A stretch of DNA of 64,000 bases from Carpediemonas membranifera BICM (taxonomy: Eukaryota > Protista > Fornicata), in assembly GCA_019828565.1 (NCBI GenBank), contig JAHDYR010000005.1, positions 1,776,871-1,840,870 on the forward strand, read 5' to 3'. Numbering within the stretch: position 1 is the first letter of the stretch; the number at the start of each line of letters is the position of its first letter. The notes under the pieces are model-generated. The model searched no databases and had not been told where the DNA came from. It worked only from the letters and a program-made list of their open reading frames with translations. Both the position numbers and the translations under genes were made by a program. This document shows, piece after piece, positions 3,067-64,000 of this stretch.

Positions 3067-4218
3067 TTAAAAGTGGGGCCCGAGAAGGCTGAGGTTCATC
3101 CTCCTGGTGAGGTCCTCGTTTGTTCTGATGGCGTCAGCGATATAGCTGCGGAGGGAGGTGACGTCCTTCCATGTGCCCATTGAGAGGATCACCTCCAGCG
3201 GGACTCCTGATAGAGCCATCTCCGACGCTGCCCCCTTACGGAAGCTGTGGAGACCCGTCCGTGGACCGAACAACGCCTTCACGACTCGTCGGAGGTGTGC
3301 GGCTGTGAGCGGTTTGTCTCTGCTCAGGCGCCCGTTGACTATGACTCGCCAGATGGGGGTGTCATCAGCCAGGTAGTGTGTGCCCTCGACCCAGCGTCTA
3401 AGTGCCAAGGCCGGGTTGAAGGCGGCTGATAGCCATACGTATGGTACGCGCTTCTTAACTCCCGTTAGGATGGTCTTGGTCCGCTGAATGTGTAGGAGAA
3501 TGTCGCCGTTCTTGAGTAGCTCCAGGTCGGCCGGGCATAGGGAGAGTATCTCGATGCCTCTGGACACCGTCAGATAGGCGACTGCCCCAAAGAGACATGC
3601 CTGATATGACTCAAAGTCGTCACTCCGGCGCCCCAGTGCCTCGATCATCTCAGCCTTGGTGATGGCGCCCTTAGCCGCCTGCTTAACGATGTACTTGGAG
3701 TTGGCGGGCGGATGCCAGTCTTTGAGGAACTCCTGTAGCTGAACAATCCAGTAGCCCTTCCTCGCCACGTTCGATGGCCCGCAGAAGGAGCCTTCGTCCT
3801 TGAGGAAGGCTACAAGCTGGTCTCGATCCGACAGGCTGCGATCGCGAGAGCCTTCGAACCTGGCCACCCAGCCGGCCACCGTCCGAGCAGACGCGTGATT
3901 AAGGTGAATCACTCTGTCCGACCTGAGGACTCTGTGGAAAACGTCCTGAACGCCATCACATTGAACCGTAGGCGTCCTCTGTCCTGTAGGTGAAGTAGGT
4001 GGGCCAGATCTGAGCTCGAAGCCGGGACGGAGAGACGGAGTTTCCAGGACGTCCAACTCTTGAGGAGTCTCATCTCCGGCGCTTGAACCTCTGGGTAGAG
4101 GAGAAAGACTGCTGAGGTCCAAGACCTCGGGTGTCCAGTCTGAGTCTGAACTCTCGCTGTCGCTATCTTCTGGACTATGGCTGCCATAGACGAATTGGGG
4201 GCCCAGAGGACGCGACAT
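3067..4218 (-). CDS. Tyrosine recombinase of the DIRS-like element (likely ATG 4218; frame open to 5784)
   Basis: Catalytic residues R (SRGIEIL), K (RTKT), HxxR (GLHSFRKGAA), W and Y (MGTWKDVTSLRSY). Confidence 0.88.
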   Translation of the reverse strand: MSRPLGPQFVYGSHSPEDSDSESSDSDWTPEVLDLSSLSPLPRGSSAGDETPQELDVLETPSLRPGFELRSGPPTSPTGQRTPTVQCDGVQDVFHRVLRSDRVIHLNHASARTVAGWVARFEGSRDRSLSDRDQLVAFLKDEGSFCGPSNVARKGYWIVQLQEFLKDWHPPANSKYIVKQAAKGAITKAEMIEALGRRSDDFESYQACLFGAVAYLTVSRGIEILSLCPADLELLKNGDILLHIQRTKTILTGVKKRVPYVWLSAAFNPALALRRWVEGTHYLADDTPIWRVIVNGRLSRDKPLTAAHLRRVVKALFGPRTGLHSFRKGAASEMALSGVPLEVILSMGTWKDVTSLRSYIADAIRTNEDLTRRMNLSLLGPHF

Positions 4219-5705
4219 CCAAGCCTTACGTCTACGTCCGTTGAGACTGTCTGGACTGGACCCCACTCCGCGAGGACAGATTCCATGCTGGACTCCAGAG
4301 AGGAAGGGAGTCGTGAGAAGCCTCTGGACAGCCGATCTGCTGCCAGGTTGATGATGCCCGGAGTGTGTAGTCCACGGAGTGTCAGGTTCCGGTCCTCCGC
4401 CTCCTTCTGGATCTGGGCTAGAATGTGCAGGGCCTGAGGTGGAGCCTTCGTAGACCCCGCCTTGTTGAGCCAGGCCAGAGCTGATGTGTTGTCTGAGAAG
4501 ATCGATAGCTCGCGTTGGGAACTCTGTCTGCCGATCAGACGGATGCCCTGTAGGATTCCCGCGAGCTCCTTCACGTTGATAGATTCTGCTCTTAGTTCTG
4601 GAGTGAACGTGCCCGAGGCTGAGGTCCCATACTCGCCGTGCACGGCTGCTCCCCACTTGACTCCAGATGCGTCTGTCGATACGACGAGGTCTAAGGAGGG
4701 GTGAGCGCCCCAAAGCGACTGAAGTTCTCTGATGTCTCGGACTGGGCGCTCTCTTAGCAGTAGCAGCCACTCTTGCAGTAGCTCCTTGGAGAGTGGGTCC
4801 TGTTGAAGGTGTCTCAGCCGGAGGAAAACCCCGTGGGCGGTTGTAGCGAAGTAAGTCAGTCTCCCGAGGATCTTGGCCCAAGTCTCCTGATCGATGGTCT
4901 TGCCTGCCAGAGCCTGATGAATGTGAGAGGAGTAACGTTTGGCCTTGTCCGCCGGGAGGCGTATTGTAAAACTCGCGGAGTCTATCACGAGCCCCAGATA
5001 GACCAATGACTGAGTCGGTGCCCATTCTGACTTCTCCTCTGAGGTGAGGACACAGAGGTCGGCTAGAGTCCGCCTGATGCGCGGCACCGCCCTCCTCAGG
5101 ATTTCTCGGTCGCGGTGAAATAAGAGGAAGTCGTCGAGGTAGACAACGATGGTAAGACCCGTCCGAAGGGCTAGTATCTTGGCGAGTTGGTTGGTGATCG
5201 TCTGAAACACGAACGGCGATGCGCGCCAGCCGAAGCCTAGCACTCTGTACTGAAACGCTCGTCCGTCTGGAAGATAGACTCCTAGCAGCTTGCGGTCCTC
5301 CTTCCGTACTGGTACTTGATGGTACCCGGACTTGAGGTCGAACTTGACCATCCAGTCGCCCCTCTGGAGAAGGGAGAGAGCTCTGCGCAGACCGTAGAGC
5401 CGGAAGGATGAGCGCTCTGCCGAGCAGTCGTTCAGTATCGTGAGGTTGTGAATGATCCTCTTCGACTCGCCCTTCGGCACAGTAAACAGCGAGGCGGTGT
5501 GTCGCAGGGAAGAGGGATTCACTTGCTCTATGACGCCTGTCTCTATCAAGGAAGGAATCTGCTGGACAATGAATGGGTCGACTGTCGGCTGTTGCCTTGG
5601 TGCTGGTGGTTGACTTCTCAGACGGATCTCGACCCCGTATCGTAACCAGTTGATCACCCGTTGTGATGCTCCCAACCTCTGCCACTCCCTCCACGCCGCG
5701 TTCAT
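3909..5705 (-). CDS. Reverse transcriptase-RNase H of the DIRS-like element
   Basis: RT: DLKSGYHQV, LGFGWRASP, YLDD. RNase H: TDAS..WGA, INVKEL, SDNTSA, N..ADRLSR. Confidence 0.95.
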   Translation of the reverse strand: MNAAWREWQRLGASQRVINWLRYGVEIRLRSQPPAPRQQPTVDPFIVQQIPSLIETGVIEQVNPSSLRHTASLFTVPKGESKRIIHNLTILNDCSAERSSFRLYGLRRALSLLQRGDWMVKFDLKSGYHQVPVRKEDRKLLGVYLPDGRAFQYRVLGFGWRASPFVFQTITNQLAKILALRTGLTIVVYLDDFLLFHRDREILRRAVPRIRRTLADLCVLTSEEKSEWAPTQSLVYLGLVIDSASFTIRLPADKAKRYSSHIHQALAGKTIDQETWAKILGRLTYFATTAHGVFLRLRHLQQDPLSKELLQEWLLLLRERPVRDIRELQSLWGAHPSLDLVVSTDASGVKWGAAVHGEYGTSASGTFTPELRAESINVKELAGILQGIRLIGRQSSQRELSIFSDNTSALAWLNKAGSTKAPPQALHILAQIQKEAEDRNLTLRGLHTPGIINLAADRLSRGFSRLPSSLESSMESVLAEWGPVQTVSTDVDVRLGCRVLWAPNSSMAAIVQKIATARVQTQTGHPRSWTSAVFLLYPEVQAPEMRLLKSWTSWKLRLSVPASSSDLAHLLHLQDRGRLRFNVMAFRTFSTESSGRTE

Positions 5706-5719
5706 GCATGGAAAGAGGG

Positions 5720-6202
5720 TTAGGTGTGGGCTCTCTTGCCGGAGGATCCTGTCTGAGTGCGACCTCGGTCCTGAGCGCGGCCACCGCGGCGAAAATTAGC
5801 GTCGCGCTTATCGCCCTTAGACTTGGCGCGGGCCGCCAGTTCCAGGACCTCGTCGCGATCAGGCACGCCCTTCGCCTTGCAATAGTTCTCGAACCGCTCT
5901 GCAGTAGCGTCAGTGTACACGTCCTTGATTAGAAGGTACTGGATTCTTGCAAAGAGAATGTTCCCGATCTCCTTCATCTTTGCGCCGTTCTCGATCCTAT
6001 TCATGGTCTTGTATACGAATCTGGCCTCATCTTCGAGGCCGAACCTCTTTGGCATCTCCAGGAACAGTGGACGGCGAGCTGCTTCTGCTTGCTGCTCCAA
6101 AATTGCTTCCGATTGTATCTTAACCAAGCGCTCCAGCTTCTCGATACGCTTGTTAAGCTCATCGGGACTGTCTTGCGGCGGCAGGTCTTCGTTATCAGAC
6201 AT
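5720..6202 (-). CDS. gag-like ORF1 of the DIRS-like element
   Basis: First ORF after repeat A1; N-terminal coiled coil; ATG at 6202 (MSDNED). Confidence 0.7.
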   Translation of the reverse strand: MSDNEDLPPQDSPDELNKRIEKLERLVKIQSEAILEQQAEAARRPLFLEMPKRFGLEDEARFVYKTMNRIENGAKMKEIGNILFARIQYLLIKDVYTDATAERFENYCKAKGVPDRDEVLELAARAKSKGDKRDANFRRGGRAQDRGRTQTGSSGKRAHT

Positions 6203-6283
6203 CCTGCCGATGCGTTTCGAAGTGTGACCTAAAGTGCACATTTATCGGCGCGCGCAGGTGCCAGTGATGGTCCTGTGACAGGA
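6203..6283. repeat. Split direct repeat A1 (element 5' terminus)
   Basis: Same as 2774-2854. Ends in the palindrome TCCTGT-G-ACAGGA and directly abuts the gag ATG. Confidence 0.95.
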
Positions 6284-47822: not shown

Positions 47823-49643
47823 ATGGCTGAACCAAATGACAAGGGAAGCTTTGATATTCTACGAACGCAAGCATACAACCAACTGAAGGATATCCTTCAG
47901 CACGCCAAGGACACAAGGCTCTTCTTTGAGGATTCTCTCAAGGGATCCATCCAATACGTCATGGATCCCAAGGAATTGAAGGGCTATACCGTCAAGGGCT
48001 CGCTCGAAGTCCTGACGTACAAAGATACGAAGCTCCCCAAGGCCCCCGTGGCCAAGGGCAAGAAGGGCAAGCAGGACCGGAACACGCGCACGGACACGCG
48101 CTGGCAGTCCTATGTATACATCGTGCGGCCAACCATCCGCACGATGAACATGCTGGCCAGCCATATCGAGTCCGCCCAGCTCTCATGCCCGGCCGGCTTT
48201 GAGTTCCACGTCGTCTTCGTGCCGCGAGACACCCTCTTCGCCCAAGAAGTCCTCACCGAGCGCGGTGTGTGGGACATTGTCCGCCCGCACTGCCTCGACA
48301 TCGGCTTCCTGCCCCTCCGCCACGACTTCCTATCACTTGACAACCCCGGGTCATTCCGGGAGTGCACGCTCTACAACGATGAGACGTCCATCTTCCACAT
48401 AGTACTGGCCATCATCAAAGTCCAGATCCTGTTCGGCCGCATCCCTTCCATCAAGGCCAAGGGCCGCTTCGCCATGCGACTCGTCGAAAACCTCAACCGC
48501 GAGACGGCCGCTTGCTCTGAGATTGCCACCCACCCCACCATCGACGAGCTCATCGTCATCGACCGTTCCTGCGACCTCGTCTCCCCCCTCCTGACCCAGC
48601 TCACGTACGAAGGCATGCTCGACGAGCTGTTTGGAATCCACCTCCAGTCGATGCAGGTCAGCAACAAGATCGTGAAGTACAAGGAGAAGGGGCCAGAGGA
48701 CACGGTCACCATGGATTTGTACCACAAGATCAGCCTCTTCCACGACTTCGCCTACCTCGCCTTTAATGACCTCCCCGCGGAGATCCAGCGCCAGGCCAAG
48801 ATCATCCAGGAGGCATACGATAGGAGGAACCAGGTTGACACCGTGAAGGAGGTCAAAGAGTACGTCAAATCTTTTAAGGTGCATCAAAAGAATCACCACG
48901 ATCTTCAGATACATATGAATCTAGCCAGTGCCATCGGATCGGTAACGATGAGCGCCGCCTTCCACCAACGTCTCGACCTGGAGCACGCGGCCGTGGTCGA
49001 CGGCACAGTCGACTTCGGGATCCTCGAGGACATGATCGCGTCCGTCCAGCCCCTGCGGGATGTCATGCGGCTCCTCTGCCTCATCTCCGTGACCAGGGGT
49101 GGGATCAAGCAGAAGCGGCTCGACCAGCTCCAGGCACTCATCCAGCAGGCGTATGGTTACGAGGCTCTGTTCACTATCACCAACCTCCGCCGGGCGGGCC
49201 TGCTCAACGTCGGGGGCAAGAGCTGGTATGACCGGGTCCGCAAGCAGCTGGACTTGGGCCCCCGGAGCATCGACGACCACAGCGCGAAGCAGGCGGACTA
49301 TGTCTTCAGCGGACTCTACCCGCTCAGCATCAGGGCTGTTGAGAGGCTCAGTGCTGCCCCTGACGTTGCTGCGCTCGAGGAGAAGGCGCTCAGGGCCGTG
49401 CCAGGTGGCGGGGTGACCCAGTTCGGGGAGCCCACCTCTAGGGCAGCCGGCCGCCGCAAGAAGACGATGGTCCTCTTCCTGGGCGGTGTGTGTGCGGCAG
49501 AGGTGGCTGCGCTGCGTCACCTGACCGAGACTGGCGACGTTGACTACATCACGGCCACTACAGCCATGACGAACGGGGCTGGTCTTGTCGAGAGTCTGTT
49601 CCAGGACCTCGACAAGCCCATGGCGCCAGGCCACACGAGATAG
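47823..49643 (+). CDS. VPS33: Sec1/Munc18 family protein Vps33
   Basis: VVFVPR, IIKVQ.LFG.IP.I..KG, LIVIDRS.DLVSPLLTQLTYEGMLDELFGI, YVFSG..PLSIR, FLGGV..AEVAALR. Confidence 0.93.
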   Translation: MAEPNDKGSFDILRTQAYNQLKDILQHAKDTRLFFEDSLKGSIQYVMDPKELKGYTVKGSLEVLTYKDTKLPKAPVAKGKKGKQDRNTRTDTRWQSYVYIVRPTIRTMNMLASHIESAQLSCPAGFEFHVVFVPRDTLFAQEVLTERGVWDIVRPHCLDIGFLPLRHDFLSLDNPGSFRECTLYNDETSIFHIVLAIIKVQILFGRIPSIKAKGRFAMRLVENLNRETAACSEIATHPTIDELIVIDRSCDLVSPLLTQLTYEGMLDELFGIHLQSMQVSNKIVKYKEKGPEDTVTMDLYHKISLFHDFAYLAFNDLPAEIQRQAKIIQEAYDRRNQVDTVKEVKEYVKSFKVHQKNHHDLQIHMNLASAIGSVTMSAAFHQRLDLEHAAVVDGTVDFGILEDMIASVQPLRDVMRLLCLISVTRGGIKQKRLDQLQALIQQAYGYEALFTITNLRRAGLLNVGGKSWYDRVRKQLDLGPRSIDDHSAKQADYVFSGLYPLSIRAVERLSAAPDVAALEEKALRAVPGGGVTQFGEPTSRAAGRRKKTMVLFLGGVCAAEVAALRHLTETGDVDYITATTAMTNGAGLVESLFQDLDKPMAPGHTR

Positions 49644-50611
49644 GGCATGAGTAAATTAGATGAGGTGGTTGTGTGTTCTGTGTCGTGCATTGACTCATCT
49701 CGCGATGTCTAGTCGGGAAAAGATATTGCCCGTTAAATTTGGAATATTTTATTTGAAACTGCCGAACAATCCAAATCTTATTTACTTCGTACGTCTCCTA
49801 ATCTTCACTTTGGTCGGCTTTGCGACCTACTGCAAGGTTGCATGACCACCGAGCAACTGTATCACGTGTTTGATGCCGAGCCGGGCGCACTCCTGTTTAA
49901 AGCTCTCCAGCGGTCTCTCCTGATCGCCATCGAACGGACGCCTCACGGTCAATCCTCTGCCGTTCTCGTTACGGTTAATGTGCGTGATCATCTTCTCATT
50001 AACATTGACAAACATGGTCGGCTTCCCTGTCATCGCAGCCCACAGGCCAGAGCATGGGTTGCCACCCATCTAATAGATGAAGCCGGTCTAGATGCGGTGT
50101 ACCCCCGGCTCAATAGCACCCTCACCCTCTTCTACCCCCCGTTCACCAATGATTTCAGCAAAGTGGAAACACTTCGATCATGGATGGACAAGGACCAACA
50201 GGCCTGGCCTATATGGATAGGGCAGTGCCCCATGGAGCTCAGAAGGAGCGGCCTTGGCCTCCTGTCTGAACATTCAAGGGTTGCTATCAGGGCATACCGC
50301 TGGGCGCGAGTGGGAGCTCCACGCCCATACCAAGGAATCAAAGTGTCTTCATGGAACGTATGTTTACAAGGAAAAGGAAAACAACCGTCGAGGGCCAGTG
50401 CTAGCACCGGCGGCTACATGGTTTTGTCAAGACCACAAGGAAGGAAGGGCAGCACAAAAGGGAAACAGGGGCCGTCGATAGGGGCTAAAAGGAGACTACG
50501 AACAAAGCAACAACAACTACACAGAAAGGCCCCGCTACTCAGAAAAGGGCGACGCATTTTTAGGACCGCGCCTTTTTGAAAGAATGGCCTATATAGTACG
50601 GAGCATGGACA

Positions 50612-51850
50612 ATGGGAGAAACTGGAAGGCCTGGACGGAGACCTCACCCGGATATGTACATGTGGCCCGACTTTCGGACCCAAAAATTCCGACCCAGTTT
50701 ATGGACTAGGAAAAGGGGAGAAATTTTGCACTCAACAATGCAGGTAGAAATACCGACAAGGATCAGGGATTCCACGCAGAAGCAGTGGGAGGACATCAGG
50801 GAACTACTGGACAGCTTCCTCGCTGAAAGGAACGATTCAAGGACTCTACTTCTTCGTAGAACAGGCAAGTTTACAGGAAAGTCGCTCAATGCGAACTCCA
50901 AAGGACGCAAGGAAGTAATCATGAACGCCAGACGCATCCTCTTCGCAACCGGCGTCACTGACAACAAGGACATCATCCTCAGGAACCCATGCGGCATCCA
51001 CGGCCTCCGCGACCTTTTCTACATGCTCACAGAGGCGCTCAACCCCAGAGACGAGGAAGCAAAGGACATGGCACAGGCACTGGAGCCCAAGACGCTGAAA
51101 GCGGGCTTCACTGGCATGGCAAGATGGCCATCTGAGAAGGACATCGAGACGGCGATCCTCAAGCCGAAGGAAGATGGGCCCATCGAATGGGATGTAGACA
51201 GGGACAGCGTCAAGAAGGCCGAAGGGTCGTTCATACTGGTATCAGGGGCTCATGGAGACGAGGCCGTAGAAGGCGTGCCTTACGACAAGGTATGGGATCC
51301 GGCAAACCAAGGCCCGGTCACCAGAGTGGCCTACGAGCAAGAGGACGGCAAGTACAGGGTCATCCTAGAGCTAAGCGACACGTCAGCATGGTCCATCAGC
51401 CGCTTCATGGAGGAGGCTAGGGACATCCTCAGGCTTCAGGCACCGGAGGCCCCGGCCATATGGCAGGCAGCATGGAACAAGTCAGGGATCTACCTGAAGG
51501 GCAGAACCAATATCCTGGGCGAAGGGGAGGAGACCCCCCTTAGCAACGAGCCGCCGTTCCGGAAGGTGAGGCTGGAAGTGCTCAAGGCCACCTCGGTCCG
51601 CAGCAATAGGGACGAACATGCCGATCTGGACAGGTCGTCCGCTAGCACGGTCATCGACGGAGACGAGGAGCAACATGTCAAGGACAAGGAGGAACGACGC
51701 CAGCAGGCCACCATGCCCGGCAGAAGAAGCCTCGACGACAGCCTCCTGGAAGTGAACAAGGACATGGTCGGGGGCCAACCAAGGCAAGATCGACCAGGAC
51801 GAGGAGGTCGACTCAAACAAGGTCAGCAGCCAGCCGCCGAGGATGCCTAG
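50612..51850 (+). CDS. LINE ORF1-like protein (probably extends upstream to ~50184 across frameshifts)
   Basis: 412-codon ORF at the element 5' end; its stop overlaps the next ATG. No family recognised. Confidence 0.55.
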   Translation: MGETGRPGRRPHPDMYMWPDFRTQKFRPSLWTRKRGEILHSTMQVEIPTRIRDSTQKQWEDIRELLDSFLAERNDSRTLLLRRTGKFTGKSLNANSKGRKEVIMNARRILFATGVTDNKDIILRNPCGIHGLRDLFYMLTEALNPRDEEAKDMAQALEPKTLKAGFTGMARWPSEKDIETAILKPKEDGPIEWDVDRDSVKKAEGSFILVSGAHGDEAVEGVPYDKVWDPANQGPVTRVAYEQEDGKYRVILELSDTSAWSISRFMEEARDILRLQAPEAPAIWQAAWNKSGIYLKGRTNILGEGEETPLSNEPPFRKVRLEVLKATSVRSNRDEHADLDRSSASTVIDGDEEQHVKDKEERRQQATMPGRRSLDDSLLEVNKDMVGGQPRQDRPGRGGRLKQGQQPAAEDA

Positions 51851-54121
51851 AAAGGACAAGGAGAAACGACTGGTGATCGGAGCCATCGACTTCGAGTGCG
51901 CAGACCCTGGCGTCAAGAAGGCAGGGATCCCTGCCATCCCGGTTGAGGGCGGGATCGTACTCTTTGACCTCAGCACTGGGGACATTCTTGGACACGGGCA
52001 TGGCCTGTATTACCAGGACATACCGGCAGCAAGCATGGACCAAGCGAGGTACACGGCATGGGCAGTGACGGGGCTGCCGCCGGCCACCTTCGTGGAGGTC
52101 GGGACGGGGCGGCCGCCGATCGAGTATGAGAAGCACATACATACTTTCAGGGACTGGGCCAACCGCCTGGCGGCTCAGCTGGCAAGGATCGAAAGGTCGG
52201 AGGGTTGGAAGATAATCATGTATGCAAAGGGGGTGGAGATGGAAAGCTTCCTCCTCACGAACCCCACAAATGGACTGGAGCAAGGAACCAGGGAATTCTT
52301 CCAAGCTAGGCTGGTGGACGAGAAGAAGCTACCAGAGATCCTGGAGAACAACGGCAAGGGAGGAGGCTGGCCAAAACCTCAGGGACAACCTCGACAAGGC
52401 CAACTACCTGGAAGCAGTAACAACATGGTCAAATGGATGGCAGAACAGGAGCGAGCCCAAGGGAGTCTGTCCGTACCACAGACACACCGCGGGTTGCTAC
52501 CACTGTGGGTTGGCGGATACAGTAGTCTTCACAGCCAGGATCAGGGCCCTATGCAAGGAGAGGATGAGCACCCCAGACGTCTACCACTACATGGGTAAGG
52601 CACTCGACAAGACCATGGAAGCAGTCGGGAAGGCGGAGCCGGGCATGGATATCATGGGAGGCCCGGAATTCGCGACAAGGAGGGACACCTTTGAGATCTT
52701 CGGCACGTACCCGATCGGGGACGCAAGGGACGTCAGCAGGGAAGTCGACGACAGGATCCTCGTAGTCCCGGACAACGGACACCGCTTCGGCATCGGCTTC
52801 GGGTTCGGGGAGGTTCTGTTGGGCATGAAGGGCATCTTACTGGCCCCCCCTCACAATCATGGACAACGAAGGTGTACTGGAGAGAAGCCCGCTATGGACC
52901 ATCATGGAAAGAGCCACGGCTAACCAGCTCCGCATGGTACGCGTCAGGAAGGGCCTAGGGGCAGCAAGGGAGGAGGACATCATAACCATGGCCATGCTAT
53001 ACGAGTGGTGGCCCTCGAAGGAGGCTACGGCTCATCAAGGAGTCTGGGGCTGCGACGACCTAGCAGAGAGCCTCAGGGACTATGAGAAGGTCATAGTCAA
53101 CGTCAAGGCCCCCCAGGAACAGGGGGTAGGATCACCCTAGGGGCGAGCTTCATCCCGAGAGACTGGGGGCATGGTCAGGGTCAGCGAGGCTGGGACCATC
53201 CTAAGCCGCATGCGCAAGGAAGGGGCCAGACTAGTCTCGGCAGCTATCCCGGACGAGCCCAGAGCCAACACAGTCAATGTCCCAGGCATCACGTATGTCC
53301 CCACCATAGACGGAAAGTCCGAACAGCCATACCAAAGTAGGTTCTTCGACAACGGCCTGGAGGAAAAGGCGAGGCGGATTAGCACCAGGATGGTGGGCAG
53401 GCACTTCGGCCAGGACGCGGATCAAGGACATCACGACCAGCATGGAGACAGGGAAGAGGACAGAAGGGTAGGACACGGAGCCGGCGGTAGAGCTGGTGTC
53501 AGAGCTGACGACAGAACCGGCGACAGAGCTGGTAACATGAACAGGACCTCGGATCGTAACCACGGAGGAGACGACAGGGAGAGACAGGACAACACGGGAA
53601 CGCAGATGAGAGGCTCGTTCAGCGGGAACACCTGGGCCGGTAGAGGCTCAGAGGGAGGCATGGACAACAGCAAGGATCACTCTTCCTCCACGACGCTCAA
53701 GCGCAAGGAGGGCAGCACGAGTAGGATCATGGACTCGGACAGCGGAAAGAGAAGCAGGCACGAAGAGGACACGGACTGGGAGTCTGGAAGCAGACAGGCA
53801 ACCGGCATGGACTCGGAGAAGCTGCGGCTCCGAAAGCAGTTGGCAGAGGCGCAACAAGAGATCTCAGCGCTCAAGGCTGCCCGACTCATGCAAGAGCAAG
53901 GCCACGGAAGGTTGGTGCTCTCCGGCGTCGCGACTAAGCCCAGCAAGGAGAAGCCCACGATACCCCGGCACAAGCACAAGAAGGCTAAGAAGGCCAAGCA
54001 GATCTCACCCATGGACCTGATGACCCAGTTCATCATGGTAATGCAGAGTCTACAAGGACAGCAAGTGAGTCAGACCGAGGACAGGTGCAGCGGCAGTGGG
54101 GAGTCCACGGAGGAGGAGTAA
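51843..54121 (+). CDS. LINE accessory ORF with N-terminal Maelstrom/arenavirus-NP-like DEDDh exonuclease domain (split by indels near 52360 and 52845 and a TAG at 53138)
   Basis: IDFE, P.EGGIV.F.L..G....H, IP..A...TGLPP, MYAKG.EME..LL, CPYH......HCGLAD. Confidence 0.75.
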
Positions 54122-54451
54122 GGACATGGTAAAGCAGTATTCTTTCAAGGAACAAGCAACATTTTCTTTATAATTCACAAGCCCTGGCTCCCACCCAGGG
54201 CCCGGCATTAGCTGAAATGCACTGCCGGTAGGCTGTAGCGGCAGCCAAAGGGGGGTCACGTCATATCGTCCCCTCCTAAGTACCCTGCCCGAAGAATGGA
54301 AGGTCACCAGGTGGTAACAAGGTTGGCCTGACAAGGGTCACCGAGACCGGCATCTAGGCCCCTTGTTAGGACAAGGATAGCAGGAGAGGAGCGGGAAGCT
54401 GGGGCTCCCAAATTCTGGGAATTCGCAGGATAAGGAAACAGGACAAAGGCA

Positions 54452-57400
54452 ATGGTAACCTACAAGATACTTAGTCTGAACACAGAGGGACACATAGGAA
54501 GAGGAAAGGACTTCACGGCGTCTATGGCAACGGCGATTCAGCTAAGGTTGAAGGACATAGAGGCAGTACTCATACAAGAGACATGGAGAACGGCGAATAC
54601 GAGGGTTCATTGCTTCATGGACCTTGACTACGCACTAGCAGGGAGGGAGACGGAAGAGGACCTGGTCTTAGCCAACGAAAAACGAAAGGCGGATGTCAAA
54701 AGTCAGCACCGCATCAACCGACAACTAGGCATAGCAGGCAATGACGAACCTGCGCCAAGATGGAAGGGAACAAGGGAAGGCATCGGCACGATAGTGAGCC
54801 CACACGCAACTGCAAAGTGGGACATCGGCATAACGGACAGCCTATCGGGAAGAGTGCAAGCCAGCATAATGAGAACCGGCAGGGACATACTAGTCATCAA
54901 CGTGTATGGCCCTCCATCCGGCCACAGCAAGCAGGAGAAGGATGGATTCAGGGACACTATACAGAAGATCATGGACATGAAAGGGAGCATGGAGGCCATA
55001 ATTATGGGAGACTGGAACATCGACCCAGGCCAGATGGAAAGATCCACCCGGTGGAAGGATATGATGGAGAAGCACAGGCTCAAAGCCATCATACCCAAGT
55101 CTGGGACGCTCACATCAGGAACATCAACCCCGGACTTTGCAGTGACAACACCAGGAATCCAGGGGGCGGAGATTGAGGTGGTAGAGTCTCAGAAGGTCGG
55201 GGTATGGGGCTCAGCACACAATGGAATCACACTAGCATGGAAGGAACAACGGTACTATGGCAGAAGTGAGCGAGACGTGGCTCTGGCCATACCCGAGGTG
55301 CACACCTGGCCCATGAAAAGAAGGAGGGGCCAGTCACAGTCTCAAAGCTGAACAGGATCAAGAGCTCGGACCAATGGGAAGAGACTATAAGAGCATGCAT
55401 GGGCGACCCAGTGAACAACAGGGGAGCAAAGGCAAGGGACAAAGTGTTCGGGAACGGAGTGTGGAGCGAACTCCAGCGAACCCCATGGACAGAAATAGGC
55501 AACAGGACCAGGAAGGAAAAGGATGAAAGAGGAGCTGGAGAAATACTGGGGAGAGCGCAGGGCCAAATGGGTGGCCGACATCAGCAGAAGTGCAAAAAGG
55601 GGGTATAGGGCCTCAAGGGCCTCAGTGGAAGCTGCCATCAGAAGGTGGTGGTGTGACAACCAATACAAGGGAATGCCGGAGAGCCTCCTCAAGGACGGAG
55701 TGATAACCACGGACAAGGCGGCCATCAGCGAGATCCTCTTGCAACAGTATGCTAGAGTCAGCAGAGGCAGGGAACCCACCTGGAAGACATGGAGGGGCAG
55801 GGACGGAAATGAGTTCAAGGAAAGCGAGGTCAAAGCCGCAATCAAAAGGATCAGGAGGGACACCGCACCAGGGCCTGACCTCACATCTGGAGACATGCTG
55901 AGAGAGCTGGATGAGAAAGGCCTTAGGGAAGTGACGAGGCTCATCAACAGGGTCTACAGGGAGGGCGACGTACCCAAAGCATGGAAGTATGCCACAGTGT
56001 CGGCCATACACAAGACAGGGAAGCCAAGGGTCAAGCTGGAATCATATAGACCAATATCCTTGACACCACTGCTGTACAGGGTCTATGGTAGATTGCTCAA
56101 GATACGTCTGGAAGCAGCAACGAAAAGGTTCATACCAAGAGAACAGGCTGGTTTCCAGTCAGACAGGGACGTCATCCAGCAGATACAGTACATTGTGCAG
56201 CGGCACCAGGAGGGGGTGAGACCACGTCAATCTTTCTGGACATCGAGAAGGCATATGACACGGTACCAAGGGACATTCTCATGGATAAGCTACAGGGTAT
56301 GGGGGTGGAGGAGCACTTGATCAGGGCAATTCAAGGCACAATAAAGGAAACCTGGATATCAGTCAAGGGGGCAAAGGCATGGGAAAGAACCAACAGGGGA
56401 GTTAAGCAAGGGTGCGTCCTGGCACCGACACTGTTTGTGCTGTTCATGGCTAACTGGCCCCACCTGGCCAGAAAGAAAAATCAAGGGAGAACGGTACGAC
56501 ATCAGAGAACCGCCAAGGACCACGAGCCACCTCAGCGACCGACTACCGGCAGCACTTACCATGTTTGTGGATGACACTGCGGTCACAGGGAGCAAGCCGG
56601 AGCATAGCCAGATGGTCGCCAACATAATGGTGGACATAATCAGAGAGCATGAAATGAGGGTGAACGCCCAGAAGAATGTAATGATTAGCGTGGACAGAAC
56701 AGCCCTAGTCAGGATCGAGGGGGTAACACTACTGCCAGAGAAGGAGGCGAGATACCTGGGATTATGGATCGCAAGTGGGAAGGACCCTATGTCGGCCTGC
56801 ATAAGGCGGAAACAGGAGCAGAGCGAAAGGTACAAGAGACTGGTGAGATGGGCAGGGTGGACCAGGGCAAACATGCCAGCACTAGCGAGCAGGCTACTAC
56901 TGGAAATATATATATGGCCCAGGATCCTCTTCGGAGTCGAGGTGTGGGGGAACGCACCGGGAGGTAGAAGGATCTGGAATGACTGGCAGGGAATCATGGC
57001 AGGAACAGGACCGGGAGGGGGCGCAGCCATGAGGCTGATGAATGGATGGGTGGACCTCCAGGCACACATGGAATGGCTGGCAGTCAAAAGGATAGTCAAC
57101 TACAGGGACCAGGATATACCAGTCAGAAACAGAGAATGGGGGCGGGGCACGGTTATGTGGGAAGCTAGGGAGAGAGTGCAGCATCTACTGGAGGGCACCA
57201 GAGAGGGAGCCCCTAAACCAGCGCTACTGGATTATGGCATGGAAACGATCAGGAGGGGGTGGATGAAGCGGTGCAAAAGCCGTACGGCACTAGGACTAAT
57301 GGAAATCATGGGGACAAGGAAATTAAGCAAGTGTCTGCAAGGTAAGCCTACGGTAGACCGAAAGGCTGGGAAGGGGCAAAGCAGGGCGGAATGGAAGAGA

Positions 57401-57894
57401 ATTGTATCCATTGCAGCCAATGTCAGCCCATCCCCATCGTCGGCAGAGAGAGGGAGGGCCCTATGAGAGCCATCACAGAGCTGGCCCAAGGCGCTGACCT
57501 GAAGAGAGAAATTAGCAGACTATGCCCCCTATGCTCGGAGGAGTCGGAGGTGAGCCTGTTCTACAGGATCATTAGGGAAAAGCCAGGACCAGCAAGGAAG
57601 CAGGAAATGATCAGGGAGTGGGCAGAGGGCCAGAGGCTAGGATCGGCAGCGCACATAATCTGTGAATGCCCGGCAGTAGACAGGGGAGAAGCTTGGACAA
57701 AGCTGTGGACAGCAGCGAAGCACAAAACTAAGGACTTGGAAGTAAGGCAGGGCCCCCAGGGCGAATGGTACCAGGAAAGACCCATCCTAGAATTACAGCA
57801 ACTAATAATATGGGGCTCGGAGGACATTTGGGAAGGCCTCACGGCAGGACTACGGGAACTGGCAAAGGTTTACAACAGCTTCAAGGTGGAATAG
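54452..57894 (+). CDS. LINE pol: APE endonuclease + RT + CCHC (several single-base frameshifts)
   Basis: APE: SLN..G, IQET, NVYGP, GDWN, PDF, SAH. RT: APGPD, YRPISL, EQAGF, FLDIEKAYD, GVKQG..LAP.LF, FVDD, RYLG. CCHC: CPLC...HIICEC. Confidence 0.9.
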
Positions 57895-58865
57895 AAGCAT
57901 GTCATGAACCCCTGACTCCAGGACCGGGAAGGGATGGACAAGGAATCAGCCATGGACCACCCTCGCTGGTGCTAAGCTCCTGGGATCAGTGAGGAAAGGC
58001 CCCACGTATCCCGGTAGCCAGGAACCAAAGCAAGGGAAGGAACGACTGCAAGGAAAGAACAGGAAGGACAGACCAGAAATAAGAAAGAAAGGACATGCGA
58101 CAAGGACAGAGCAAGGATAAGGTCAAGGAAATCCATATTCATATGGTTGCACCACTCGTTGGGACCCCAAGGAAACTGCAGGGACTGGCCACGGGGGTCG
58201 GAGGGGCACAGGTGCCCCTGCCGCCCTTGTTAACGACATGGGAAACCAAGGACATGTAGTGCAAGCGAAATGTTGTAAGGGGTAACAGGACAACCAGGCC
58301 TAGTGCCTGGGGGTACACCACCCATGCCCTGACCCACGCCACCTAACCGGGGTAGACAGCATGGACTTAGTCACTTTCCCCGCCTTCGGGTAGGCTTCCT
58401 AACAGAGTCGAGGGGGCATGGAATTGGGGAACCGGACAGACGAGAGGGTGCCGTGGCTGAACGGCTCTACAAGGACTGCAGGGAAGCAAGGAGTGTCATA
58501 GTCAAGGTTCTGCAGGACGATCCTGCCTGTCAATGCCCCGAGGACAGACCCCCAGGCTCCCCGGATAGTTGCCGGACTTTCAGGGAGACAGGAAAGCATA
58601 TTTGCACGGAGATGGCCGCAGGGCCTCTGGGGCGATTGGAATCGGCTTTCCGCGGAGACAGTAGCACCGAAAGCCCAAGGCAAACGCTGCTGACCAGTTT
58701 GCCACGGGAAATAGGCAGTACCCCGGGGCACTCAGTTCCAAGACAACGGGAAACAAGCTCAGTCCGGGGTCAGAATCCAAGCACCATAAATTTCTTTCTT
58801 TCCTCTTCTACCCCCCCTCCCAGGAGGACCGCCCGGTCCGAGAGACCCTCCCACAGGAGGACTAG

Positions 58866-59200
58866 AAGGCAGCCGAGCAGGCCAAGGTCTGGACCCGCGA
58901 CCAGCAAAGGAGAAGGGAACCCAAGGGGCTGTGCCCCTATCACAGAAACACACTAGCCTACTGTCACTGTGCGCTTGCGGATGTATCGCTCTTCTACACA
59001 AGACTCTCCCTGGCCATCCACGTGCTGTACAACCCGTGGACCTGGGCTGATGTAGGAGCGGAACTAATCGCACGGGGAGGGAAAGTGACGGGGGCACAAA
59101 GCCCCATCATCAGAGTAGGACACGGGGCCCCGGACCTGGCTGAAGAGATCAACCTCTATAGAGGGCGAGAGGTCATCACACCCCTAGGGCAATTACAGCA
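58866..59200 (+). pseudogene. Fragment of a diverged paralogous Maelstrom-like ORF, in frame with downstream Gypsy gag
   Basis: EPKGLCPYHRNTLAYCHCALADVSLFYTRL aligns with EPKGVCPYHRHTAGCYHCGLADTVVFTARI at ~52453-52545. Boundaries approximate. Confidence 0.72.
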
Positions 59201-60931
59201 TGTGATCTTTACCACCATGGGCTCCATCGAGCGTGCGACCCGCATTCTGATCGCCAGCTTCCGCAATCGCATGCGACTATTCGATTCCCTTCCTGCCGGT
59301 GAAGACCTGCCAGAGGCAACCACGGAGGAGGATGTGACCTCCAGACGTCATCGCTTCGAACAGATCTGTAGCAGACTGCTCGTCGACGCCCTCCAGCGGC
59401 CTAAGGCCCTGAAGACTAAGACGAGATGGATCTCGCTCCTATGGGGCGACGACTCCTTCGATGACACCGTCAAGTCGGCGGTCAAGGCTGCTAAGTTCCT
59501 CGACCGCCAGGGTCCACCCAGGGCTCCGAGGGCCCACGCCCCGGCTCCAGCCGGCCACGTGAAGCGTGTGGGCCGAGGCCCTACGCATCCCGCTAACGGC
59601 CCGCGCCCTTAGGGCCACAACCTCCCCAGACCTCAGGGTCAGCGCCCTTCGGGCCAGCAGGCTCCTCAGCCCCTTACCAGACCCTGCAAGTTTTGTCAGG
59701 GCTGGCATAAGGACTACCGCTGCCCTCAGCACCCGAAGTTCGCCGCTGAGGAACGCCAGGCTCAGGCCAACGCGGCCCAGACTTCGTCTGTCGATCCTAT
59801 GACCACCACGGCAACTATAAAAGGCCGTGAGTATTCTTTCACTGTCGACACTGGGGCAAGTATATGCTTTATGAGCCAGAAGGCTGTACGCCAGCTACCC
59901 AGAGACGCTGTATCAGTTGACACCGGAGAGTGGATCACTGTGACCCTAGGGGACAACCACAAGGTTTGGACGAACCAAGTAGCTACGCTCACCTTCCGTC
60001 TAGAACGGCTCGGCCCAGTGCCCATTACGACGACCTGGAAGTTCTATGTGCTTCCAGGCGAAGCCTTCAAGGTTCTATTGGGCTGCGACCTTCTTAGGTC
60101 ACTCAAGTTCATCGACGATGAGACACTCAACTTCAACCTCGAAAAGCTAGGCTCAGAGGACGAATCAGAGTGGGTTCCATTCACTCACAGGTACCTCGAC
60201 GAAGACCTGAACACAGCTGAGGTGGAAGAGAACCACCCGGATATTCCGGACTCAGCAATAAAGCCCCAGCTCGAAGAGCTCGTGGCCGCTTTCCCCGATA
60301 TTTGGGAAGAGTCTCTCCCCGCAGAAGGGTCTAACCTGGAGGAGATGACTATAGAGCTCGTAAACGAGCGGGACATTGTCCAGGCAAGAGCTAGAGGCCT
60401 TGCCGACGCGACAGCGACGCTTGTGGCGACCGAGCTCGAGGCTCTTTGGAGATCTGGGATCATCCGAGAGTCTCGAGGCCCTTACAGCTCCCCCATAGTG
60501 GTTGTGAAGAAAGGTCACAAGGGCTCCCAGAAAATCAGACTCTGCGTTGATTACAAAGAGCTGAACGACCTAACGATCAAGGACAAGTTCCCGATTCCAA
60601 ATGTTAGACATTTCGTGGATCGCGCGGCAGGCTGCAAATACTTTGCCTAGACCTTAGGCAGGGGTACTATCAGATGAACATGAGTGAAAAGGATATTCCT
60701 AAGACCGCGTTCGTTATCCCTGACTCGTACTTCGAGTTCACTAGGTGTCCTTTTGGTCTGACGAACGCTCCCTCAAGGTTCCAGCGTGCTTTGCAGCGGG
60801 CCTTTGCGGAAGTCCTTCATAAAGGAGTCGACATATACCTTGATGATATCATGGTATATGCTCGCTCGGAGGACGAGTTCGTCGCCCTGATAGAGAAAGT
60901 CTTCTCCATCTGCCGCGAGTACAAGCTACGC
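59200..60931 (+). pseudogene. Gypsy gag C-terminus, protease and RT N-terminal part (TAG at 59610, frameshift ~60648)
   Basis: Zinc knuckle, DTGAS and RT motifs; YFA..DLRQGYYQ is broken by a small deletion. Confidence 0.85.
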
Positions 60932-62429
60932 CATGGGGACAAGGAAATTAAGCAAGTGTCTGCAAGGTAAGCCTACGGTAGACCGAAAGGCTGGGAAGGG
61001 GCAAAGCAGGGCGGAATGGAAGAGAATTGTATCCATTGCAGCCAATGTCAGCCCATCCCCATCGTCGGCAGAGAGAGGGGAGGGCCCTATGAGAGCCATC
61101 ACAGAGCTGGCCCAAGGCGCTGACCTGAAGAGAGAAATTAGCAGACTATGCCCCCTATGCTCGGAGGAGTCGGAGGTGAGCCTGTTCTACAGGATCATTA
61201 GGGAAAAGCCAGGAGCAGCAAGGAAGCAGGAAATGATCAGGGAGTGGGCAGAGGGCCAGAGGCTAGGATCGGCAGCGCACATAATCTGTGAATGCCCGGC
61301 AGTAGACAGGGGAGAAGCTTGGACAAAGCTGTGGACAGCAGCGAAGCACAAAACTAAGGACTTGGAAGTAAGGCAGGGCCCCCAGGGCGAATGGTACCAG
61401 GAAAGACCCATCCTAGAATTACAGCAACTAATAATATGGGGCTCGGAGGACATTTGGGAAGGCCTCACGGCAGGACTACGGGAACTGGCAAAGGTTTACA
61501 ACAGCTTCAAGGTGGAATAGAAGCATGTCATGAACCCCTGACTCCAGGACCGGGAAGGGATGGACAAGGAATCAGCCATGGACCACCCTCGCTGGTGCTA
61601 AGCTCCTGGGATCAGTGAGGAAAGGCCCCACGTATCCCGGTAGCCAGGAACCAAAAGCAAGGGAAGGAACGACTGCAAGGAAAGAACAGGAAGGACAGAC
61701 CAGAAATAAGAAAGAAAGGACATGCGACAAGGACAGAGCAAGGATAAGGTCAAGGAAATCCATATTCATATGGTTGCACCACTCGTTGGGACCCCAAGGA
61801 AACTGCAGGGACTGGCCACGGGGGTCGGAGGGGCACAGGTGCCCCTGCCGCCCTTGTTAACGACATGGGAAACCAAGGAAATGTAGTGCAAGCGAAATGT
61901 TGTAAGGGGTAACAGGACAACCAGGCCTAGTGCCTGGGGGTACACCACCCATGCCCTGACCCACGCCACCTAACCGGGGTAGACAGCATGGACTTAGTCA
62001 CTTTCCCCGCCTTCGGGTAGGCTTCTTAACAGAGTCGAGGGGGCATGGAATTGGGGAACCGGACAGACGAGAGGGTGCCGTGGCTGAACGGCTCTACAAG
62101 GACTGCAGGGAAGCAAGGAGTGTCATAGTCAAGGTTCTGCAGGACGATCCTGCCTGTCAATGCCCCGAGGACAGACCCCCAGGCTCCCCGGATAGTTGCC
62201 GGACTTTCAGGGAGACAGGAAAGCATATTTGCACGGAGATGGCCGCAGGGCCTCTGGGGCGATTGGAATCGGCTTTCCGCGGAGACAGTAGCACCGAAAG
62301 CCCAAGGCAAACGCTGCTGACCAGTTTGCCACGGGAAATAGGCAGTACCCCGGGGCACTCAGTTCCAAGACAACGGGAAACAAGCTCAGTCCGGGGTCAG
62401 AATCCAAGCACCATAAATTTCTTTCTTTC
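60932..62429 (+). mobile_element. 5'-truncated copy of the 50141-58802 LINE
   Basis: Near-identical to 57307-58802; 16-bp TSD CGAGTACAAGCTACGC at 60916-60931 and 62430-62445; same (TTTC)3 end. Confidence 0.95.
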
Positions 62430-62687
62430 CGAGTACAAGCTACGCTTGAAAGCAGGCAAGTGCAAAATTGGCACGGACGACGTGGAGGCCGTGGGCTATA
62501 TCGTCTCTGAGAGAGGGAAGCAGCTGGCTCCATCCCGTGTACAGGCGATCTGGGATATTCCCGTCCCTGAGACGGCTAAGTCGCTCCAGAGGGTGCTAGG
62601 TTCATTCAACTACGTTGCGCAGTTCGTCGAAGACGCTGCCCGGACACTACGTCCCCTGAACCACCTACTCACCACCGCCTTAAAGGT
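62430..62687 (+). pseudogene. Gypsy RT C-terminal/thumb fragment
   Basis: LRLKAGKC...VEAVGYIVS..G...V.AI..IPVPET.K.LQR.LG.FNY...FV. Confidence 0.88.
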
Positions 62688-63552
62688 TTTGAGTTTTTGA
62701 GTTTATTTTTTGATACAGTGCCGGGGTGTCCACCTCCAGGCACTGGCCACAACCCGAGCCAGACGAGCGGTGATCAGCCGCAGGAGGGCAACGGTTCTCA
62801 TAACATTGGAAGCCAGAGCTGCGGCGCCCAAGAGTACTGTTCTGAAGCTGCAGGGAGAGGAGGGCCTAAAACCCCTTCGAAGAAGGGTAAAAAGATGACC
62901 CACGCGGGTCGGCCAGCTCACAACTTCCAGCTCTTGGCGCTGCGGGACTCTGTGCTCCGAGCCCGATGGGGCTCCCTCAGGACGATGATCGAGGAGGTCC
63001 TGAGACCGGGGAGGACGGTGGCGTTTTCCTATGTAAGCGAGGGAACCTACCAGTCACGCGTCACAAAGTACACTCAACATATGTGTGTGCTTGGCGTCGT
63101 CACGCCTGCTCAGGGTCAGGGGGTCCTTGAAAAGGAGGATGGGGTTAATCTTGAAGTGGTCGCACTTAGCCAAGTGGGTCTGGTTCAGGACAACCCACGT
63201 CCTGGATCTCAGCACTGCTAGGGTCTTGGTAGGGGACGTCAGGATCTCAATCACAGCCGCGGCGATGGCCTCACCCTGACAGAGAGGACATGCCTCAAGA
63301 GCTGCGGCGGCTTCCGGTTCATCCTTCAGGTCCTGTAGGATTCCCCTGACCGGCTGCCACGCGTCAGGAAGAGCCCCTCTCGTTGGCATAGGTAGACACG
63401 ATAGCCGTAGCATCGCGAGGCGCTTCGCTGGCCCAGCCGTTAGATGGTCGAGGTATGGCTGCCTGGCCGGGTAGTTAGAGCGGGTGAAAGGGCGGGTGAG
63501 TGCCGACTCCGTGACGTATCTCCTGACAGCCACTTTGTTACCACGGCAGATT
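62688..63552 (-). mobile_element. 5'-truncated LINE of a second family in opposite orientation
   Basis: 14-bp TSD ACCGCCTTAAAGGT at 62674-62687 and 63553-63566; ORF end with CPLC...HLAKC (stop at 63054); 3' end AATAAA followed by a CTCAAAAA-like repeat tail. Confidence 0.85.
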
Positions 63553-63566
63553 ACCGCCTTAAAGGT

Positions 63567-63775
63567 CAAGGGCCCACTCTCCGACCTTTGGACGGACGAG
63601 CATACCCAAGCTTTCGAAGCCTACAAAGCTAAGCTTACATCTGACACTGTTCTAAGCTTCCCTGACATCTCTAAGAGATGGATCCTCGAGACGGACGCGT
63701 CAAATGAGGGGCTAGGGGGAATCCTGTACCAGGAGGACAGTGACGGCGGAAATCGCCAACTAGTGAGTTTCTTCG
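63567..63775 (+). pseudogene. Gypsy connection/RNase H N-terminal fragment
   Basis: WT.EH..AF...K..L....VL.FPD.SK..ILETDASN.GLG.ILYQ. Confidence 0.88.
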
Positions 63776-64000
63776 TGTGACGCGGTCCTCGCTCTCCTCC
63801 CGCAGTTTATGTAAACGTTCAACCTTCAGCACAGTGATCACTCCTGGTTTATAATGTTGAACCCTCAACAGCCAACGCTGAGTCAATTCACCCTTGAAGA
63901 AGCACGGCAATTCTCAAGACACTTCCGCTTCTTCAAAACCCACTTCAAAACAAGCCAACATCACCCCACCGTCCTCCAGTGCCTCACTTCTAGCCAAATC

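Follow-up and report, generated by a model that had tools for sequence, protein, structure and literature searches.

Our analysis of a 64,000-nucleotide stretch of the genome of the protist Carpediemonas membranifera BICM (GenBank assembly GCA_019828565.1, contig JAHDYR010000005.1, positions 1,776,871 to 1,840,870; hereafter the window) indicates that a long interspersed nuclear element (LINE) at 50141–58802 carries, inside its first open reading frame (ORF1), a nuclease domain that is very probably of the Maelstrom (MAEL)/arenavirus nucleoprotein (NP) type and that is probably catalytically active. The predicted domain spans 51864–52563, with a one-base frameshift at 52358, and joins a DEDDh catalytic set, here in a DEEDh variant, to a Glu-Cys-His-Cys (ECHC) site; it and all features of the LINE described below lie on the forward strand. 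The Maelstrom family is known as a host weapon against transposons, in the piRNA pathway and in trypanosome RNA interference, and for counter-defense in arenaviruses. A nuclease conserved in a LINE ORF1 would place a Maelstrom-type enzyme on the transposon side of this conflict, and the striking point is that a LINE enzyme appears, by its fold and motifs, to be a homolog of a host silencing factor. The core claim of an earlier reading made from the letters of this DNA (the sequence-only reading), that a LINE with an apurinic/apyrimidinic endonuclease (APE) encodes a MAEL/arenavirus-NP-type DEDDh+ECHC nuclease with intact catalytic residues, stands on the models, motifs and conservation given below. 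None of the adverse outcomes that it had named in advance (lack of a fold match, full-length copies lacking the ORF, and a coincidental duplication or a host gene) occurred.

The catalytic set comprises D51888, E51894, E52242, H52501 and D52516 (residues are numbered by window position), and the DEDDh signature of D-x-E, an acid and H-x4-D is present. Residues E51945, C52468, H52477 and C52504 form the predicted zinc site. Those that the sequence-only reading had quoted (D51888, E51894, C52468, H52477, H52501, C52504 and D52516) all lie where it had placed them. The ExoII motif, which was placed by motif comparison, reads K-G-V-E-M-E, with E52242 at the position where DEDDh enzymes have an aspartate. 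C52468, H52477, C52504 and D52516 are found at offsets 0, 3, 12 and 16, the same offsets as C290, H293, C302 and R306 of Bombyx Mael, in which E137, C290, H293 and C302 are the zinc ligands and R306 replaces the last catalytic aspartate (PMC4408791; papers are cited throughout from the portions of their text that were available). Judged by eye, the window motifs D-F-E...P-V-E and C-P-Y-H-x6-Y-H-C-G-L-A-D agree with the Entamoeba MAEL rows D-F-E...P-[IL]-E and C-x-Y-H-x6-Y-H-C-[GA]-L-x-D, and K-G-V-E-M-E with the trypanosomatid rows K-[GD]-x-x-M-D (alignment in PMC2628886). A similar by-eye comparison with the EHHCHC signature (Zhang 2008) found five of its six residues in the window copy; the first His is present in 9 of 11 rows and the second in 3 of 11, most members of the LINE domain having T or S there. 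Because of the ECHC site and the motif spacing, the domain would belong to the RNA-acting MAEL branch rather than to the DNA-acting DEDDh enzymes.

Two structure models were made, the first of the domain of the homolog P0002 from 4 sequences, with a predicted local distance difference test (pLDDT) score of 67, and the second of the homolog P0023 from 18 sequences, which was compared with 48,161 chains. In the P0023 model, pLDDT is 80–98 over most of residues 21–300, dipping to 53–74 at 71–110; over the nuclease domain it is mostly 85–98. Drosophila MAEL ranks first among its matches (4YBG; Z 11.6, root mean square deviation 4.1, 206 residues aligned), and two Bombyx MAEL entries match with Z values of 11.3 and 10.8 over 205 and 204 residues (9NHC and 5AF0; deviations for the three Maelstrom structures, 3.9–4.6). 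Of the arenavirus NPs, that of Lassa, which the sequence-only reading had named for this comparison together with Maelstrom, reaches Z 9.9, and that of LCMV 9.5. A second structural comparison of this model agreed. The predicted fold is a DnaQ-topology RNase H-like fold, with VIA Z values of 10–11.6 to many DEDDh structures, a Foldseek probability of 1.0 and Atlas TM scores of 0.55–0.60. The first model likewise has a DEDDh fold (RNase T, Z 10.2), and in Foldseek Drosophila Maelstrom gave it the highest TM score by query, 0.49, among the matches listed.

Several results weigh against assignment to the Maelstrom family. On the weaker first model, Maelstrom reaches only Z 8.3–8.4, at ranks 22–25; on the P0023 model, RNase T, DinG-exo, 3'hExo and DnaQ fall within one Z unit of Maelstrom's 11.6, and Foldseek ranks TREX1 first, followed by 3'hExo. 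The Pfam Maelstrom profile matched neither the window pieces nor 15 homologs at E values up to 1–5, PDB sequence searches with one protein and profiles A2 and A3 gave no route to MAEL, and neither Pfam nor the profile search linked the LINE domain to protist MAELs at the sequence level. The near-ties DinG-exo, RNase T, 3'hExo and DnaQ, however, align over at most 183 residues, versus 204–206 for Maelstrom. Thus, given the tied Z values and the Foldseek order, the models prove the DEDDh fold and favor MAEL without separating it cleanly.

Comparison with known systems refines this likeness. The DEDDh+ECHC combination is found in both protist MAEL and arenavirus enzymes, but the LINE domain appears most similar to the active protist MAELs (the Entamoeba EHI_192630 type and trypanosomatid RIF4), which have the DEDDh set and ECHC site in common with it (PMC2628886, PMC4408791, PMC3359990), and less so to arenavirus NP. 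The protist MAELs are host RNA-silencing genes with D at ExoII, whereas the LINE domain is part of ORF1 and has E. Metazoan Maelstrom has the same C-x2-H-x8-C spacing as the LINE domain (PMC4408791) but has lost the DEDD residues and carries an HMG box; in the LINE domain the acidic residues are kept and no HMG box was seen. The arenavirus NP exonuclease (ExoN; 3R3L, 4O6H), a domain of a viral nucleoprotein, aligns with the P0023 model over 164–167 residues at 17–19% identity, fewer residues than Maelstrom, and appeared in an Atlas feature row at 0.89, which we treat as a lead only; the ECHC site has been described as common to Maelstrom and arenavirus ExoN (PMC7968707).

Exonucleases borne by retroelements have a precedent in the Juno and Vesta long terminal repeat (LTR) elements and the Terminons of bdelloid rotifers, which encode a 3'-5' exonuclease with intact catalytic residues in a DEED variant; this exonuclease is shared between retroelement classes, and a Cys-His-Cys motif was noted in Vesta2 and Vesta5 (PMC5408684). 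The authors of that work already mention the Cys-His-Cys motif of Maelstrom (PMC5408684, PMC6431247). The bdelloid ORF3, however, is an RNase D-like DEDDy enzyme in a separate ORF of LTR and Penelope-like elements, not LINEs (PMC5408684). Such an ORF3 was ruled out here: the LINE domain has H-x4-D, lies inside ORF1 and has DEDDh enzymes as its top structural matches. Enzymes in LINE ORFs include the esterase of CR1, L2 and RTEX and a virus-like SF1 helicase in Jockey ORF1 and TRAS ORF2 (PMC5408684, PMC5563155), none of them homologous to a host silencing factor. The literature searched, with Repbase and most subscription journals outside it, yielded no description of a retrotransposon with a MAEL-type domain; the available portions of PMC3985635 make no MAEL–retrotransposon link, and those of bioRxiv 10.64898/2026.05.21.726589 and PMC5874029 hold nothing on this element. 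The view that no described LINE clade has this cargo therefore holds for the literature searched, with the qualification that the bdelloid DEDDy ORFs are a precedent for a retroelement exonuclease (PMC5408684). LINEs with an enzymatic ORF1 were already known; a MAEL-type nuclease as that enzyme appears to be new, and the LINE lineage, with its new type of ORF1, is apparently undescribed.

Because every tested relative that carries both motifs is an RNase of RNA defense or counter-defense, we infer by analogy an RNA-duplex substrate and a counter-silencing role. Our preferred reading, which we hold at slightly less than an even chance, is that the nuclease may destroy element-derived duplex or small RNA and so blunt host RNA silencing. 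ORF1p coats element RNA in LINEs. Here, ORF1p would coat the LINE RNA in cis, and its nuclease, predicted to be a 3'-5' exoribonuclease, would digest duplexes formed with antisense transcripts, or siRNA duplexes. This digestion would precede Argonaute loading and so fall at the same stage where RIF4 serves its trypanosome host: TbRIF4, a 3'-5' exonuclease with a preference for dsRNA, converts siRNA duplexes that derive from retroposons into a form loaded by Argonaute (PMC3359990). Entamoeba Mael (EhMael) is a Mg/Mn-dependent exoribonuclease (PMC4408791), arenavirus ExoN dampens innate signaling (PMC7968707), and a LINE-borne silencing suppressor has been reported in the TRAS helicase (PMC5563155). 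Other observations speak against counter-silencing. EhMael is active on ssRNA, so a preference for duplexes is not universal (PMC4408791); the available main text of the C. membranifera genome paper mentions neither Argonaute, Piwi nor retrotransposons (PMC8516963); and some newly sequenced diplomonads are without Dicer and Argonaute (PMC11437800). It now becomes testable whether LINEs use enzymes of their own to suppress RNA silencing, and assays can draw on the LINE domain as a small MAEL domain whose catalytic residues are apparently intact.

The element itself lies in eukaryotic, gene-dense DNA and is a recently mobile APE-reverse transcriptase (RT) LINE. It is full-length at 8,662 bp, with an A-rich sense strand and a (TTTC)n end without poly(A). 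The 14-bp target-site duplication (TSD) CTCTTCTACCCCCC (15 bp with a shared C counted) flanks it at 50127–50140 and 58803–58816 and occurs nowhere else in the window, against a chance expectation of ∼1e-5 per 10 kb. Its 3' copy directly follows the TTTCTTTCTTTC tail. The match of a contig from run X1 to the LINE begins exactly at 50141, the first six letters of the contig being different. The TSD-bounded 8.66-kb element of the sequence-only reading is thus confirmed by the CTCTTCTACCCCCC pair, the contig start and the APE and RT matches described below. The inferred 5' untranslated region covers 50141–50737, the start of ORF1 (ATG at 50738) having been set by homology to P0002, and the 3' untranslated region with the (TTTC)n tail covers 57895–58802. 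Self-comparison found no terminal repeat, i.e., no LTRs. A second, 5'-truncated copy at 60932–62429, inserted in a Gypsy RT, corresponds to the last 1.5 kb of the LINE with 99.7% identity (five differences) and has its own 16-bp TSD (60916–60931/62430–62445), which shows recent target-primed insertion. Thus, two TSDs (14 and 16 bp), a (TTTC)n tail and a 5'-truncated copy, all LINE hallmarks, are present.

Both window copies stop at the same base, in TTTCTTTCTTTC, without poly(A). This would also fit a role of the nuclease in maturing the element's own RNA, by shortening the tail, whether poly(A) or read-through, as far as a protein-protected (UUUC)n end and so fixing the RT start for target-primed reverse transcription, a role that we consider rather doubtful. 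The domain, as part of ORF1p, would sit in cis on the RNA, and 3'-end processing has been proposed for the bdelloid DEDDy ORFs (PMC6431247). However, the last 123 nt contain no unusual structure able to stop an exonuclease (z 0.26), and the tested MAEL-type relatives work in silencing, not in end maturation. Many microsatellite-tailed LINE clades, moreover, have fixed 3' ends without a nuclease, which counts against trimming.

ORF1 (50738–54121) was read by homology as a protein of ∼1,130 aa from tblastn alignments with P0002, P0003, P0015, P0023 and P0024, and is frameshifted in this copy. P0002 (849 aa) and P0003 (839 aa) align to 50738–53110 in four consecutive frame segments, and P0015, P0023 and P0024 run through the window's TAG at 53138 and on to 54118. 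The breaks in the window copy fall near 51775, 52358, 52848 and ∼53110–53160. Since the homologs, P0002, P0003 and P0024 among them being paralogs named C. membranifera, read continuously across these breaks, the nuclease is an internal domain of a single ORF1 and not separate cargo; the sequence-only reading had proposed an additional ORF, starting at 51843 and lying between ORF1 and pol, but this was not borne out, the homologs reading from 50738 through the nuclease to ∼53110 or, in others, to 54118. The one-base frameshift that the same reading had put near 52360 was recovered, the homologs placing the frameshift at 52358, the same spot at which an X1 contig spanning 52285–52453 (one contig, depth 2.6) lacks one base. 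Contigs also carry indels at three breaks in pol (55517, 56211 and 56476). The frame-correcting contigs are single, of depth 2.6–4 and possibly from the same material as the assembly, and among the ORF1 breaks they cover only 52358; they suggest that the ORF1 and pol breaks reflect assembly error or intact sister copies. Window ORF1 is 98–99% identical to P0001, a protein named Carpediemonas membranifera.

ORF1 begins with an N-terminal domain, which a disordered linker joins to the nuclease; a third conserved domain follows, and the tail is disordered/coiled-coil. The N-terminal domain (50738–51640) is 48–57% identical to P0003 and P0002 and gave no Pfam match below E 0.1 and no usable Atlas match. 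The third domain (52564–53200) contains G[MT]KGILL and FIPR[DE]WG motifs and is poorly modeled, with pLDDT mostly <60 past residue 300 of the P0023 model.

Among 1.84 billion representatives, a profile search found 14 proteins at E up to 1e-3. None is named Maelstrom; seven carry the name C. membranifera, and the remaining seven are other NCBI proteins. Four of the latter seven, with lengths of 1,129–1,250 aa, have the same ORF1 layout with the nuclease at the same position, and the catalytic and zinc residues are kept across families at 22–55% identity. Conservation was assessed on 16 alignment rows, which remained of 18 after two near-duplicates had been dropped. In rows covering each column, the catalytic residues are conserved in 9/10 (D), 10/10 (E), 11/12 (ExoII E), 11/12 (H) and 12/12 (D), and the zinc-site C, H and C in 12/12 each; the zinc-site E is in-column in 8/11, two more being probably shifted by insertion. 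The Nei-Gojobori ratio of nonsynonymous to synonymous substitution rates (dN/dS), a check that the sequence-only reading had suggested, is 0.24–0.51 in seven of eight pairs, the eighth being saturated; these values are rough because all dS are near saturation. Judging by these ratios, the nuclease domain is under purifying selection.

Conservation bears on a further reading, in which the domain is mainly an RNA-binding or chaperone module of ORF1p, as in metazoan Maelstrom, and catalysis is dispensable. Pfam detected in ORF1 neither an RRM nor a CCHC knuckle, nor any other known RNA-binding family, Bombyx MAEL binds ssRNA without cutting it (PMC4408791), and two paralogs have lost a catalytic residue (P0003, D to Y; P0014, H to L), which also weighs against a general need for activity. 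We nevertheless regard this reading as unlikely: 26 of 233 alignment columns reach at least 88% conservation, those of the catalytic residues included, and the metazoan MAELs that turned into binding modules lost theirs (PMC4408791).

The linkage of the nuclease ORF with an APE was found again outside the window. Four of 97 pattern hits in a metagenome scan were confirmed (L001–L004), and in all four an APE ORF, 32–38% identical to the window APE, starts 300–450 bases past ORF1; Pfam detects this APE weakly, in one of the four. The contigs stop before the RT and come from one assembly, and we therefore count them as four families from one source. They branch apart from the C. membranifera families in a tree of 11 rows without an outgroup, from which seven short or duplicate rows were left out. 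Searches of viral contigs and prokaryote genomes gave no related loci. Because the same ORF1 precedes an APE ORF in 4/4 loci, we take these to represent a LINE lineage and not a host gene. An alternative in which the domain does no work for the element, being a host gene or a fragment transduced passively, can point to a diverged piece of the domain outside the LINE, at 58869–59030, but is largely refuted and now very improbable: the domain lies within a TSD-bounded unit and in frame inside ORF1, occupies the same position in the 1,129–1,250-aa homologs, precedes APE in every metagenome locus and appears to be under purifying selection. As side observations, P0018, also named C. membranifera, has the N-terminal half of the nuclease and part of the third ORF1 domain followed by unrelated-looking sequence and is probably a rearranged or mis-predicted copy, and positions 1–395 of L004, upstream of its LINE, read by eye like a DDE transposase fragment with a VLDNAPSH motif.

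The pol ORF (54452–57894), frameshifted in this copy, contains the APE from 54452 (PF14529, E 2e-7), an RT that matches PF00078 in three pieces and has FVDD at 56564, and a C-terminal CxxC...HxxxxC motif at 57523–57667. By these features, the element is an APE-type non-LTR retrotransposon. The best PDB sequence matches of the RT are the R2, group II intron and L1 RTs, and its best protein matches are APE-RT-RNase H proteins at 33–43% identity. A search for pol genes neighboring P0002 and P0003 returned no Carpediemonas protein. Pfam found no RNase H domain in pol, and the nuclease might stand in for it at the insertion site, clearing away the RNA strand or 3' DNA flaps while the second strand is made; the DNA-acting DinG-exo, RNase T, DnaQ and TREX1 lie within 1.5 Z units of Maelstrom in the structural comparison. 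We think this quite unlikely, since the ECHC site and motif spacing indicate the RNA-acting MAEL branch. Many LINEs that lack RNase H rely on host enzymes, which also argues against such a role.

The spacer between the two ORFs (54122–54451) contains a conserved element of two hairpins (∼54230–54278). It follows a U-rich tract and consists of a small hairpin and then a GGGGGT...CCTCC hairpin, with a short A-rich stretch linking the two. The element occurs once in each metagenome locus (L001 5340–5420, L002 4736–4816, L003 2320–2400 and L004 6372–6452); in the window, a loose version of the motif has one further match, at 52229 within ORF1. Among five sequences, 8 of the 20 consensus pairs show two-sided change. 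Rfam gave nothing at the gathering threshold over 49600–64000, and only chance-level rows for the spacers. The hairpin element could control pol translation.

Downstream of the LINE, 59200–64000 contains a Ty3/Gypsy-type element with a gag-like ORF, zinc knuckle, protease, RT and RNase H. The piece of the nuclease domain at 58869–59030 (forward strand) is a diverged C-terminal part with C-x2-H and H-C-A-L-A-D; it scores 43 bits (E 7e-13) with profile A2, is 45–52% identical to named paralogs, and is in frame with the gag-like ORF upstream of the Ty3/Gypsy-type protease, RT and RNase H. It may be the remnant of an older LINE, or it may belong to a Gypsy element that formerly had the domain in common with the LINE. 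The left flank of the LINE (49737–50140) was considered as the N-terminal half of this nuclease and is unsupported, 37 of 500 shuffles having scored as well and pairwise scores being at chance; since this flank has no significant match to the rest of the domain, a whole Gypsy-borne nuclease is likewise unsupported. Longer relatives of the flank ORF were not found, which is weak evidence. Taken more broadly, it is possible, though we hold the idea as tentative, that a protist LINE lineage built a host anti-transposon nuclease of the MAEL/RIF4 type into ORF1p as a silencing suppressor, and that such mobile DEDDh+ECHC domains, perhaps also passed to Ty3/Gypsy in the same genome, form a third branch linking Maelstrom and the arenavirus exonuclease. 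Whether mobile elements carried a MAEL-type domain between cells and viruses is now testable.

One LINE copy lies inside the Gypsy RT and the full-length copy just upstream of the Gypsy, which may hint at an insertion preference. Within the Gypsy, ∼0.8 kb between the RT end and the RNase H region (62700–63470) gave no Pfam match in the three ORFs tested. Elsewhere in the window, a DIRS-like element on the reverse strand (3070–5928) has long ORFs that overlap and encode RT/RNase H-like and tyrosine recombinase domains, with short repeats at 2615–2911 and 6195–6283. An intact-looking non-LTR-type RT ORF on the forward strand (1–2133), with a C-terminal CxxC/HxxxC motif and a Pfam match to RT only, presumably belongs to a restriction-like-endonuclease element. 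An intronless host gene of the Sec1/Vps33 family (47823–49643) ends ∼480 bp before the LINE.

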